Positions 14,189 through 17,775 are shown, numbered from the stretch's first letter. The stretch: DNA of 20,343 nt from Candidatus Diapherotrites archaeon CG10_big_fil_rev_8_21_14_0_10_31_34 (GCA_002763225.1 PFAI01000003.1:1-20343); one strand, 5' to 3'. Made by a program: numbers and translations. Notes: generated from the sequence alone by a model not told the origin.

Positions 14189-14204
14189 TTTTTCTCTTTT
14201 TTTT
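14189..14204 (+). terminator. Oligo-T archaeal-type terminator candidate
   Basis: TTTTTCTCTTTTTTTT directly after the stop at 14184, between convergent genes. Confidence 0.45.
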
Positions 14205-15840
14205 ATATTTCTATTTCAATCACTGAAACATTTGTCTCTAATCCAAACTCTTGCATAACTTTTTGATTTATTTCCCCTACAAAACCTTTTTTTCCGTCAG
14301 AGAATTCAATTAAAGCGCTTTTTCCTTCAGCTAAAAAACTTGTTTTTGCTTCTTTTAACTTAACTTTCATTTTTAATTCTCTTGCTATTGCTTCTAAAAT
14401 TGATTTTACTTCATTAAAGTTTGTTTTTGAATGAGTAATTGAAACGCATAATTTCCATTTTTCTTCTACTCCTGTTTCTTTTTCTGAATTTAATTCAATT
14501 GTTCTTCCTACTTCAAAAATTTTTTGAGGATAACTTTTATTCTTGTTTTTGCTTAAAAAATCAAGTGACTCAGGCAGCAATTTTTTCCTGAATATTTCCC
14601 AGTTAGATGAAACAGGATTAGCTATTTCAACAAATTCTTCTTTTAAATTCATTTTCTTCATTTGAGTTTCTTTTGAAGTCAAATGATTTGAAGCAATTTC
14701 CTGCAAGCCAAATCCAATACATAATTCTCTTACTTCTTTTAATTGAGTTGATTTTTCTTCAACACTTCCTAAAGTAAAAACATCAAGTTTTTCCGGTTCA
14801 AACTTGTTGTAATCAAATGCAATAGCAATATCTTCTATTACATCCCATGGATGAATTATGTCTTTTCTGTAATTCCCAAATTCAACAGTTATTTTTTTTC
14901 CTTTGATTTTTCCTTTTAATCTCTTTTTTTCCAGCAGTTTTAATATTTCTTTTCCTGAAAAGTTTGTTCCAAGCAGTTCATTTACTTCGCTTAAATTAAA
15001 AACAATTTTTTCTTTTTTAAATTCAGGGGAAATTAATTTCTTTTTTTCATAATCTAATTCAACTGAATAAATTTTTCCTTTTCTGTCAGCTAAAGCCATG
15101 CACATAATCTTTAACGCAGTGTCAACTAATTTTTGATTAAATCCTGTTACATCAACAAACAAGTTTTTTGTTTGTTCTGTTACTTTTCCTGATGTATCTG
15201 AATTAATTATCGGAGGCATTGATAAAACTTCGTTGTTTTCATCAGCCAATAAAGGAAATTTTTCAAACCCTTCTATGAGCTTTCCGTATTCTTTTCCTTT
15301 TGGATGCTTTATTAAAATTTCTCTTAAGCTCATACTCTCAGAAAAACCTAATGGAATAAATTCCATTGAAGGCTCTGCAGCAAAATACTTTACATTTCCT
15401 TTAACTTTATCCAAATCAAATACTCCTATTGCAACCTGTTCTCTTTTTTTTCCAAAGCTCTGGCAGATTTTTTCCTGCAATTGAATTATCTGTAATAAAA
15501 TTTCTTCAGTTATTTCAATTCCTCTAATTTCTGCATAAGCTGCTTTTGGTCTTATGTCTTTTAAATTTGAATCAATTTTTGCTTTTCTTTTTCCTTTCAA
15601 AACTTTGTATTCTGGAATCCCTTTTTCTTTTCCAATAAAAGCTTTTATTTCTCTGGCAATTCCTTCAACTGACCATAAATCCGGTCTGTTAGTTTCTTTT
15701 ATGTCAATCTTTAATTCATCTTCGTTTATTCCATCTAATTCTCCTTTGACTCCTAACAATACGTCTTCTAATTCTTCTTTTGAAAACTTTTTTCCAACCA
15801 GTAATTCAAAATCTTTTTTTGAGCATTCAATTGTAGGCAT
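14203..15840 (-). CDS. pheT: Phenylalanine--tRNA ligase beta subunit (archaeal type)
   Basis: MPTI start, TNRPDLWSVEGIAR, QLQEKI...GKKR...AIGVFD, VLSMPPIINS, YRKDIIHPWDVIEDIAIA. Confidence 0.97.
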   Translation of the reverse strand: MPTIECSKKDFELLVGKKFSKEELEDVLLGVKGELDGINEDELKIDIKETNRPDLWSVEGIAREIKAFIGKEKGIPEYKVLKGKRKAKIDSNLKDIRPKAAYAEIRGIEITEEILLQIIQLQEKICQSFGKKREQVAIGVFDLDKVKGNVKYFAAEPSMEFIPLGFSESMSLREILIKHPKGKEYGKLIEGFEKFPLLADENNEVLSMPPIINSDTSGKVTEQTKNLFVDVTGFNQKLVDTALKIMCMALADRKGKIYSVELDYEKKKLISPEFKKEKIVFNLSEVNELLGTNFSGKEILKLLEKKRLKGKIKGKKITVEFGNYRKDIIHPWDVIEDIAIAFDYNKFEPEKLDVFTLGSVEEKSTQLKEVRELCIGFGLQEIASNHLTSKETQMKKMNLKEEFVEIANPVSSNWEIFRKKLLPESLDFLSKNKNKSYPQKIFEVGRTIELNSEKETGVEEKWKLCVSITHSKTNFNEVKSILEAIARELKMKVKLKEAKTSFLAEGKSALIEFSDGKKGFVGEINQKVMQEFGLETNVSVIEIEI

Positions 15841-15881
15841 TAAAAATCCATTTCCTTAATTTCTTTGATTAAATTTTTCAT
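15840..15881 (-). CDS. Putative micro-ORF 2 (13 aa, MKNLIKEIKEMDF)
   Basis: Its ATG overlaps the TAA of micro-ORF 1, and its TAA overlaps the pheT ATG (TAATG). Translation is not demonstrated. Confidence 0.45.
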   Translation of the reverse strand: MKNLIKEIKEMDF

Positions 15882-15928
15882 TAAATCCTTTCCTCAAAAA
15901 TTTCTCCAATTAAATTCTTTTTTTTCAT
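15881..15928 (-). CDS. Putative micro-ORF 1 (15 aa, MKKKNLIGEIFEERI)
   Basis: Its ATG overlaps the pheS TAA (TAATG) and its TAA overlaps the next ATG. Translation is not demonstrated. Confidence 0.45.
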   Translation of the reverse strand: MKKKNLIGEIFEERI

Positions 15929-17766
15929 TAAATTCCCTTCCTTAACCAATCCAGATTCTGTGAAAACAATTCTCTTATATCATTTAGTTTAAGCTTGAAC
16001 ATTGCTAATCTGTCCATTCCTAAACCCCAAGCCAAACACTTTTCTTTTATTCCAAGGTTTTCAGTTATTTCTGCCCTGAAAATTCCTGCACCACCGAATT
16101 CAACCCAGCCTAATTCAGGGTGTAATGCATTTAACTGAACTGATGGTTCGGTAAAAGGATAATAGTCAGGCAAAAACTTTACTTTTTCGGCTCCGGCAAT
16201 TTCTACTGCAAATTCTTTTAGCAATCCAAGCAATTTTCTTAAAGTAAAATCTTTTCCAACAACAAATCCTTCCATTTGATTGAATTCAATTAAATGAGTT
16301 GCATCAACTACATCAGGCCTAAAACAACGGGCTAAAGTAAAATATTTTCCAGGAACTTCAATTCCTTTAACCAACTGTCTTGCAGAATGAGCTGTTCCAT
16401 GAGCTGAAGGCATTAACTGTTCAGCAATTTTTTCACTCCACTCATAATTCCAGCCCATGCTTTCAGCTTTTCCCCCGTTTTCATGGGCATTTTTTATTGT
16501 TTCAACAATTTTTTTTTCAGGAAGTTTTCCATGAGTAGGCTTCTTTAATTTGTATGTGTCAGTCCAGGTTCTTGCAGGATGATTTTGTGGCTGAAACAAT
16601 ACATCAAAATTATAGAATTCCTGTACAATCAAAGGGTTTTCCATTTCTTTAAACCCTAATGAAACCAGTTTTTGTTTTATTTCATCAACAAATTTATAGT
16701 AAGGCTGTTTTTTTCCTGGATAAACTTCTTCAACCGGGTCCTGAATATTATAATTTCTTATTATTTTTGCATTCAATAAATTTTCTGAACTTCTTGTTTC
16801 TTTTATTGATTCATTTGCACTAAAACCTTTTTCTGTAATTGAAATAAATTCATTTCCTTTTTCTTTGTGTTTTAAAAATCCTTTTCTAAAACCTAAAAAC
16901 TTCAAAACTTGTTTTTCTTTTTCATTTAAGTTTTTTTCTTCTAATTCTTTTTCCCCTATTTTTTCCAGTATTAATTCTTCTTCAGTTTTTTTCTCTAAAA
17001 ACTCTTTTCCTTTTTCTGTGATTTTAACAGTTAATTCTTTTTCTTTTTTTAATTCAATTAAATCCTTTTTTTTTGCGTTTCCTAAAGCAATATTTATTTC
17101 CTGTTTTGAAATGCTTTTAATTTCTGATAAACTTTTCCAGTTTTCGTTTAACTCTTTTAAAAAGTTTTTTTCCGGCAAACCGTCTTTTACTGCTTTTAAT
17201 CCTTCAATTCCAAGTGAAACAAAAACCTGTTTTTCAATTCTTGCTTTTCCTAATTCTTTTTCATTCAGCCATTGAATTGCTCTTCTGGCTGAATCTAATT
17301 CAATTCCTGTTTTTTCGCTTAATTCCTGAACGCTTAATTCTTTTTTTTCTTCAGCTAAAACCTTTAATGTTTTTCTTTCAATTTCACTTAACTCTGAAAC
17401 AATTTTTTTTGCAGAATCATCCAAGCCAACTGCATTAATTTTCATTTCTTTTTTTCCTTCTTTAATTTCATTTTTTTTAATTTCAATTTTACTTTTTTTT
17501 TCTTGAATTCCTTCTTGAGTTTCTTTTTCCCAAACTTTTGCTTTTCCTTTTTCTAAAATCAATTCAATTTTTCCTTCTGCAGTTAATCTTATTTTCTTTA
17601 ATTCCACTAAATAATCTATTGCAGTGGAAAAAGTCTGGTACATCATTTGTTTTGGAAGCTTTTTCCATAACTCTGTTTTGCTTAATTTTTCTTTTGATTT
17701 CTTAATAGTATTTTCAACCATTGCAATAGTATCTAATCTGGGAGAATGAATGTGTTTTTTATCCAT
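15928..17766 (-). CDS. pheS: Phenylalanine--tRNA ligase alpha subunit with an extra ~107-aa N-terminal extension (wHTH-like domain plus linker)
   Basis: NFDVLFQPQNHPAR, RCFRPDVVDATHLIEFNQMEG, YYPFTEPS, WGLGMDRLAM. First ATG at 17766. An internal ATG at 17445 would give a conventional-length 505-aa protein. Confidence 0.96.
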   Translation of the reverse strand: MDKKHIHSPRLDTIAMVENTIKKSKEKLSKTELWKKLPKQMMYQTFSTAIDYLVELKKIRLTAEGKIELILEKGKAKVWEKETQEGIQEKKSKIEIKKNEIKEGKKEMKINAVGLDDSAKKIVSELSEIERKTLKVLAEEKKELSVQELSEKTGIELDSARRAIQWLNEKELGKARIEKQVFVSLGIEGLKAVKDGLPEKNFLKELNENWKSLSEIKSISKQEINIALGNAKKKDLIELKKEKELTVKITEKGKEFLEKKTEEELILEKIGEKELEEKNLNEKEKQVLKFLGFRKGFLKHKEKGNEFISITEKGFSANESIKETRSSENLLNAKIIRNYNIQDPVEEVYPGKKQPYYKFVDEIKQKLVSLGFKEMENPLIVQEFYNFDVLFQPQNHPARTWTDTYKLKKPTHGKLPEKKIVETIKNAHENGGKAESMGWNYEWSEKIAEQLMPSAHGTAHSARQLVKGIEVPGKYFTLARCFRPDVVDATHLIEFNQMEGFVVGKDFTLRKLLGLLKEFAVEIAGAEKVKFLPDYYPFTEPSVQLNALHPELGWVEFGGAGIFRAEITENLGIKEKCLAWGLGMDRLAMFKLKLNDIRELFSQNLDWLRKGI

Positions 17767-17775
17767 AAAAATCAA

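Follow-up and report, generated by a model that had tools for sequence, protein, structure and literature searches.

Two Short Reading Frames Bridging pheS and pheT in a Diapherotrites Archaeon: A Candidate Ribosome Relay

Organization of the pheS–pheT Locus

Phenylalanyl-tRNA synthetase (PheRS) needs both of its subunits in equal amounts. In the archaeal group considered here, the gene for the beta subunit, pheT, usually overlaps or closely follows pheS, the gene for the alpha subunit. The present analysis concerns the pheS–pheT junction of Candidatus Diapherotrites archaeon CG10_big_fil_rev_8_21_14_0_10_31_34 (GCA_002763225.1, PFAI01000003.1:1-20343); the whole stretch of 20,343 nucleotides (nt) that was analyzed is called the window. 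Here, 87 nt separate the pheS stop from the pheT ATG, and this spacer is occupied by two short open reading frames (ORFs), mini-ORF 1 and mini-ORF 2. All features of the locus lie on the minus strand (Table 1), with pheS as the first gene on its own strand and a divergent neighbor upstream.

The listed ORF of pheS starts at a TTG (17775), with an ATG three codons further in as the likely start, and ends in ...LRKGI followed by TAA (15930-15928). From this stop onward, three TAATG overlaps in series connect pheS with mini-ORF 1, mini-ORF 1 with mini-ORF 2, and mini-ORF 2 with the pheT ATG (15840). All frames are co-directional and share 1 nt at each of the three junctions, as do termination–reinitiation junctions, in which the overlap is 1 or 4 nt. 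The original prediction, made from the DNA of the window, had described this chain and proved correct in every detail; the strand and the exact ORF coordinates have been added. Translations and coordinates bear out the full tiling of the spacer, and the similar purine element that had been noticed ahead of each junction was recovered as a box, AGGAA..GGA..TTTAATG, common to all three. The three successive −1 shifts place pheT back in the frame of pheS, with 90 nt from stop to start (15930-15840). The two peptides share the pattern MK..NLI.EI. Each mini-ORF contains a single TTT codon, which in mini-ORF 2 is the last sense codon, again as predicted. The start of PheT itself, MPTIE..., is kept in all relatives when the starts are aligned.

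Table 1. Features of the pheS–pheT locus, with coordinates counted from the first letter of the window; SD, Shine–Dalgarno.
Feature	Coordinates	Strand	Description and basis
pheS (PheRS alpha)	15928..17775	-	ORF list, translation; Pfam tRNA-synt_2d (class II core domain F), E 8.6e-77, residues 342-613
Junction box 1	15926..15942	-	AGGAAGGGAATTTAATG; last pheS codons, SD-like purine run and TAATG; anti-SD duplex -7.3 kcal/mol
Mini-ORF 1	15928..15881	-	15 codons plus TAA, MKKKNLIGEIFEERI; translation, chain search
Junction box 2	15879..15894	-	AGGAAAGGATTTAATG; SD-like run and second TAATG; anti-SD duplex -6.0 kcal/mol
Mini-ORF 2	15881..15840	-	13 codons plus TAA, MKNLIKEIKEMDF; translation; tandem duplicate of mini-ORF 1
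Junction box 3	15838..15856	-	AGGAAATGGATTTTTAATG; SD-like run and third TAATG, including the pheT ATG; anti-SD duplex -5.3 kcal/mol
pheT (PheRS beta)	14203..15840	-	Pfam B1, B3_4, B5 and CLM domains

Reproducibility and Rarity of the Chain

The chain of mini-ORFs is real and reproducible. The identical 87-nt spacer is present in two other metagenome assemblies (L031 and L032). Moreover, in three groundwater sequencing runs (X5, X6, and X7) single contigs span positions 15838-15942 with 0 differences and 0 gaps, and in a fourth (X8) the stretch is covered by two overlapping contigs without any difference. The check for an assembly artefact that had been suggested at the outset was thus passed in two assemblies and in the contigs of four further runs. 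Parts of the stretch are contained in additional runs (X9-X17), and none of the listed runs with the stretch is recorded as RNA.

The arrangement is also unique within its genome, an assembly of 1.04 Mb in 65 contigs with a G+C content of 31% and a completeness of 81%. In this genome, 51 ORFs of at least 100 codons have a stop codon that is overlapped by an ATG (TAATG or TGATG). Fifteen of them lead directly into another ORF of at least 100 codons and four into an ORF of 41-99 codons, while in 31 cases a mini-ORF follows but no long ORF is reached. A passage through two mini-ORFs into a long ORF occurs once among the 51, solely at the pheS–pheT locus. When the 87-nt spacer was shuffled, full tiling was obtained in 2 of 1000 sequences if links of −4 to +3 nt were accepted, and in 0 of 1000 if only overlaps counted. 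The pattern AGGAA-x(0-2)-GGA-x(0-2)-TTTAATG has four occurrences in the genome, both strands included, three of which are the junctions described here; as the pattern was derived from these junctions, the count describes its rarity elsewhere and is not an independent test.

The Junction in Related Genomes

Both genes were found in 28 of 29 relatives. The gap between them is −1 nt, i.e., a 1-nt overlap, in 10 of these 28, 0 nt in three, 1-13 nt in eight and 36-665 nt in seven. Larger collections give a similar range: among 80 metagenome loci, 71 contain both genes, with a −1 overlap in 16 and a gap of 0-1 nt in 12, and among 80 species-level genome contigs, 65 have both genes within the flank, with a −1 overlap in 15 and a gap of 0-1 nt in nine. 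In many lineages of the order, pheT starts 9-30 nt downstream of pheS and has its own GGTGA-type box.

Within the genus, a direct TAATG overlap is found in G001, G003, G005, and L035, and pheS and pheT abut in G002 and L034. Counted as distinct genus-level lineages, six of eight (those just named) are free of an insert. Of the five other species of the genus, three show the direct TAATG overlap, in one pheS and pheT abut, and the fifth, G004 (identical to L033 and L125), carries a 42-nt insert with an ATG that overlaps the stop of pheS. In the three outgroups at family level, the gaps measure −1, 0, and 2 nt. The direct overlap or abutment in congeners indicates that the chain is young: as far as sequence comparison goes, it is a derived, species-level state and not a conserved device. 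The original prediction had proposed to look for retained TAATG chains in related genomes, and none of the genus relatives keeps one. It had also named direct pheS/pheT overlap in relatives as an observation that would count against it; this is found in part, since congeners do show direct overlap or abutment, while G004 has one mini-ORF, off frame. Translation shows the downstream end of the G004 insert to be untiled, and this insert is not counted as support.

The register of pheT may be noted here. Codons 4-5 of pheT (15826-15831 in the window, with an equivalent site in relatives; the ATT GAA of the conserved MPTIE) contain a TGA in the −1 frame, a built-in catch stop near the start. Spacer frames that run into pheT in this register all stop 13 nt inside it, as observed in L003, L010, L012, L016, L022, L060, and L061.

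Origin of the Insert

The alignment of their DNA identifies the two mini-ORFs as tandem duplicates, its score being reached by 0 of 2000 shuffles (p < 0.0005). The copies differ by approximately six substitutions and three length differences of 6, 3, and 3 nt, as seen when their translations are compared. All three length differences are multiples of 3, for which the chance would be about (1/3)^3 if the frame were irrelevant. The likeness of the peptides and the frame-preserving character of the indels, both pointed out in the original prediction, hold up in these comparisons.

A search of the genome for a second copy of the 105-nt stretch gave none; the query matched itself and low-complexity pieces of at most 44 nt, which points to a local event and not to a mobile element. 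Junction box 1 belongs to pheS and is unchanged in congeners without an insert, so boxes 2 and 3 are to be regarded as copies of the ancestral junction. This junction box is the only part that is clearly shared with the pheS end. Whether the fillers between the boxes derive from the 3′ end of pheS was first tested globally, with p values of 0.02-0.08; the outcome of the later, local tests is given below.

It is possible that the inserts of the window's genome (G000) and of G004 have one shared origin or that they arose separately. The similarity between mini-ORF 2 and the G004 insert is weak (p 0.027), the genus forms a polytomy on the PheS C-terminus plus PheT, and an approximately unbiased test neither supports nor rejects a clade of G000 and G004 (p 0.163). 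All assemblies and contigs of the window's lineage have two units throughout, and the congener G004 has one unit-like insert.

A Proposed Ribosome Relay

Probably, though by no means certainly, the chain is a lineage-specific duplication of the coupling junction, whose mini-frames would relay ribosomes from pheS to pheT so that coupling is preserved. The ancestral junction of the genus would be the 1-nt TAATG overlap with an SD-like purine box ahead of it, inside the 3′ end of pheS, i.e., a standard arrangement for termination–reinitiation. In the lineage of the window, this junction cassette of box and TAATG would now be present three times, with two related short fillers in between. A ribosome that ends pheS at its TAA would restart at the overlapping ATG and read the 15 codons of mini-ORF 1. 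After the stop of mini-ORF 1 it would restart, read the 13 codons of mini-ORF 2, terminate on the pheT ATG and restart there. At every step, the small subunit would be retained by the SD-like box, which may in addition bring in some ribosomes de novo. The mini-peptides would be by-products without a function; the role of the frames would be to keep the 87-nt insertion from uncoupling beta from alpha. The tiling may have survived selection against uncoupling variants or may be actively kept by that selection. The ribosome relay had been part of the original prediction, and this part fits both the anatomy of the locus and published coupling experiments. Its Phe-tRNA-sensitive part is not supported (see below).

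Several observations bear on the individual steps. The 3′ end of the 16S ribosomal RNA (rRNA) of the genus is GGATCACCTCCT; the anti-SD was taken from the 16S rRNA of five congeners, the genome of the window having no assembled 16S rRNA. Duplexes between this anti-SD and the boxes are moderate, not strong (Table 1), and an SD-like motif precedes the overlap at all three junctions. The median duplex is −3.8 kcal/mol at the first ATG of 828 long ORFs and −2.1 kcal/mol at 896 random ATGs, from which it follows that SD pairing is used in this genome. The genome also has 65 overlaps of one long ORF with the next, 49 of the ATGA type and 16 of the TAATG/TGATG type, most of them with a G-rich box upstream.

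Experimental work explains why an insertion at such a junction should matter. According to one report (PMC6728339), strict coupling was seen for 13 of the 14 overlapping gene pairs that were tested in Haloferax volcanii and E. coli. A second one, on the same two species, states that gaps of approximately 20 nt almost abolish coupling by termination–reinitiation and that the last 15 nt of the upstream frame are enough for coupling (PMC10666635). As coupling is lost at gaps of about 20 nt, an untranslated gap of 87 nt should uncouple pheT, and tiling would rescue the coupling.

Bridged spacers are, moreover, enriched at this junction in other lineages. Bridging was defined as full tiling by frames that start with ATG. 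Among 24 distinct pheS–pheT spacers of 20-150 nt, four are bridged with all links between −4 and +3 nt, with 0.64 expected from shuffles (P ~0.003); three are bridged if only overlaps count (0.15 expected), and eight if a downstream overlap of at most 14 nt is allowed (2.16 expected). A looser relay criterion, with any start codon, links of −4 to +10 nt and a last link of −20 to +10 nt, was rejected as too permissive (15 of 24, with 8.55 expected).

Alternative Explanations

The strongest competitor of the relay is possible but unlikely. It holds that the slippage duplication simply happened in frame, that pheT is initiated mainly de novo from its own box, and that the tiling is unselected, with mini-ORFs that are incidental or untranslated. 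Some of the points that follow speak for this leftover, others weigh against the relay. The chain is confined to a single species-level lineage, congeners having the direct overlap, and the assemblies that hold it are near-identical. A unit with a length of 2 mod 3 is tiled from the moment of its duplication, and tiling by itself is therefore no proof of selection. In G004, the frame of the insert passes by the second TAATG (with four T rather than five) and stops 13 nt into pheT, at a TGA; a mini-ORF off the TAATG frame is tolerated there, and exact tiling is thus not required for viability. The many lineages of the order with a GGTGA-type box 9-30 nt behind pheS show that an uncoupled pheT is viable in the group. 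In the window itself, pheT keeps an SD-like box of its own in the range of ordinary starts (37% of the first ATGs of long ORFs score as well as its −5.3 kcal/mol or better), which makes a de novo start without a relay possible. Tandem duplications of the junction recur elsewhere without tiling, as in L110, where there are two repeats, each with its own box and a mini-ORF 14 nt from the next start. As for the enrichment of bridged spacers, the criteria were set post hoc, the three definitions having followed the looser one, two of the four hits (L133 and L193) carry the same repeat element, and kin are not independent. Lastly, it is not shown that the fillers derive from the 3′ end of pheS: they were aligned locally with the pheS tails of six members of the genus (12 tests, p 0.04-0.89), and no test survives correction.

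Against a neutral leftover stands the state of the copies themselves. Despite the substitutions and the length changes, each of the latter a multiple of three, both frames, both ATGs and all stops are exact. Bridged spacers are enriched across lineages. Furthermore, box 3 is weaker than the ancestral box (−5.3 kcal/mol vs −7.3 to −7.6 kcal/mol in congeners with the direct overlap), which counts against a shift to stronger de novo initiation.

A more far-reaching idea extends the relay and must be called improbable: that the junction cassette is a selected 'gear', variable in copy number, that sets the ratio of PheRS beta to alpha, and that, in a wider sense, mini-ORF relays rescue insertions into coupled junctions in DPANN archaea with small genomes. 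Such a cassette would consist of an SD-like box, TAATG and a dozen codons, and each added unit would change the number of ribosomes that reach pheT. The local duplication in the window, the ORF-bridged spacers elsewhere and the hairpin-bearing cassette of one family (described below) point that way. If this idea is true, such relay frames could give rise to new small genes within operons. A literature search on translational coupling between pheS and pheT found no paper on that coupling, and one on intergenic repeats with small ORFs gave nothing on archaea among the matches listed.

That the two frames encode functional micropeptides, e.g., small partners of PheRS, is very unlikely. What speaks for it is that the two frames are open, with good contexts at their starts and the MK..NLI.EI pattern in common. 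Conservation, which would be expected of a small protein, is absent: no relative keeps the peptide, and the lineages without an insert, six of the eight at genus level, lack the frames altogether. The peptide of the G004 insert (MNASELNRNLERGFNANN) is unlike both mini-ORF peptides. Besides, four of the five codon pairs that differ between the copies change the residue, and the composition of the peptides mirrors a proteome rich in K, E, I, N, and L.

A sensor of Phe-tRNA, the other function put forward in the original prediction, has just as little to recommend it. Ribosomes would pause on TTT when charged tRNA-Phe is scarce and so alter the flow to pheT, as an intercistronic analogue of the pheST leader. 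The single TTT of each frame could be read in this way, particularly that of mini-ORF 2, where a ribosome paused on the last sense codon would cover the pheT ATG, and classical pheST attenuators have been reported in gamma-proteobacteria (PMC1262725). One Phe in 15 codons and one in 13 is, however, the background level: Phe makes up 6.0% of the residues in the long ORFs of the genome (10829 TTT and 2040 TTC codons), and by chance both frames would contain one Phe or more with a probability of 0.30. The T run of the junction box accounts for the last TTT of mini-ORF 2 and also occurs in the differently framed G004. The 181-nt fold that includes the spacer is no more stable than shuffles (z 0.17; 111 of 200 shuffles fold as well), no terminator-like site was found in the spacer, and a search of this locus and four related loci in Rfam gave no credible match; two matches, to mir-17 and to the histone stem-loop, were both below their gathering scores and were treated as chance. 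With a pause on the pheT start, a shortage of Phe-tRNA would presumably mean less PheRS beta, the opposite of what homeostasis calls for. The frames are conserved in no relative, and they lie between the genes rather than ahead of the operon. Sensing of Phe by the mini-frames is therefore not supported.

Finally, a false tandem repeat that arose as an artefact of assembly or sequencing, which might be suspected because the region is AT-rich and internally repeated and run X8 covers it in two overlapping contigs at a depth of approximately 3-4, is as good as dismissed by the identical 87 nt in L031 and L032 and by the gapless single contigs of X5, X6, and X7.

Other Inserts and Cassettes in the Order

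The pheS–pheT junction is a recurrent insertion site in the order. Inserts of 250-760 nt with whole small genes are present in L010, L016, L019, L036, L040, L049, L052, L053, L055, L056, L062, L064, L072, L073, and L173. The insert of L036 contains a pair of genes, one matching MazE above the Pfam cut-off and one matching DUF4258 just below it. L055 and L062 have nucleotidyltransferase-like ORFs, each with a small upstream ORF, that of L062 scoring above the cut-offs of DUF6036 and DUF2204. The ORFs in L049, L053, and L072 have weak helix-turn-helix matches below cut-off. Several junction inserts start on the pheS stop (TAATG or TGATG) and end a few nt from the pheT ATG.

Smaller inserts are found as well. 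In L110 (1130-1258), there are two tandem repeats, each with an SD-like GTGAT, an ATG and a 12-codon frame. In L012 and L197, which have a 91-nt spacer, the first 18 nt of pheT are repeated on the pheS stop, giving a 24-codon frame that starts with MPTIES.

One family (code f23) has an element of 75-85 nt, which was found in 6 of its 23 genomes, these being 6 of 196 genomes of the order, with one to four copies each. Copies lie at L133:1226-1310 (the same as L213:1501-1585), L219:1501-1579, L214:1501-1575 (minus strand), and L193:1220-1298, and in L215, L216, L217, L218, and L220. The element stands directly ahead of pheT and of genes that resemble those for L24e, S28e, S19e, and NDK, as read from their first residues alone. 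It contains a mini-ORF with the conserved end ...HLVNGGVR; in eight of nine copies inspected, the TGA of this mini-ORF overlaps the downstream ATG. Two hairpins are predicted, with compensatory changes in 10 of 18 predicted pairs; the SD lies within the predicted 3′ hairpin, which borders on the start. The genome of the window lacks the element, and there is no match to it in Rfam. It looks like a ready-made 'coupling cassette' of DPANN archaea, comparable to the interspersed repetitive units of mycobacteria (MIRUs) discussed below, and it is an independent sign that mini-ORF bridges may be used in this group.

As to pheS itself, the protein of the window has 615 residues, with the match to the catalytic core confined to residues 342-613. 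The N-terminal half, approximately 340 residues (16750-17775, minus strand), has a high content of K and E, and Pfam gave no match to it at E ≤ 0.001.

Implications

The locus can be regarded as a natural experiment, as an 87-nt insertion is expected to abolish coupling and yet is exactly tiled by two translatable frames. If the relay works, termination–reinitiation can be chained through several mini-frames, and operon junctions could grow by duplication without losing coupling. This would be relevant to the rise of intercistronic repeats and of new small ORFs and to how synthetic coupling elements are designed. Should the relay fail, the locus is an example of an in-frame slippage scar.

Comparison With Known Systems

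The leader of pheST in E. coli lies ahead of the first gene, contains several Phe codons and forms alternative RNA hairpins that act on transcription. At the present locus the frames lie between the genes, with one background-level Phe codon each and no hairpin; a leader upstream of the first gene, a run of Phe codons and terminator/antiterminator hairpins are all absent. The likeness to the attenuators of gamma-proteobacteria (PMC1262725) consists in small frames that are associated with a PheRS operon.

Among loci of related DPANN archaea, a single frame with an ATG start is found in L133, L193, and L194; it overlaps with the stop of pheS (ATGA), and its end lies on the pheT ATG or beside it. 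These inserts occupy the same junction, but their sequences are unrelated to the spacer of the window.

The closest parallel for the single junctions is provided by overlapping gene pairs of the ATGA and TGATG types in archaea and bacteria. Each junction described here has the same form, a 1-nt overlap with an SD-like motif upstream, and the pairs of the two experimental studies likewise include co-directional genes that encode subunits of a single heteromeric enzyme (Huber et al., 2019, PMC6728339; Huber et al., 2023, PMC10666635). The known pairs consist of two real genes that are coupled directly, whereas here frames of 15 and 13 codons are interposed and three successive reinitiations would be needed.

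The arrangement as a whole would work like a MIRU but is not a MIRU. The primary paper on these units is reportedly that of Supply et al. from 1997. According to a review, there are short ORFs whose sole role is the delivery of ribosomes, and MIRUs are repeats that insert at start codons and bring along an internal frame, which is coupled at −4 (PMC12548453). As described there, MIRUs are, like the present units, short elements between the genes of an operon, with a small frame that is coupled by overlap to the next start; they can occur in tandem and do little harm downstream. A small frame that overlaps both the flanking stop and the flanking start is indeed what is found between pheS and pheT. 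In that account, the mycobacterial units occur dispersed and in multiple copies, are considered mobile and have a −4 overlap, whereas the archaeal unit is not dispersed over many loci, has no other copy in its genome, has −1 overlaps and uses a junction box that was copied from the 3′ end of the host gene. The principle of a short ORF that delivers ribosomes to the next gene, as in MIRUs, is thus already known; what is unusual is this instance of it.

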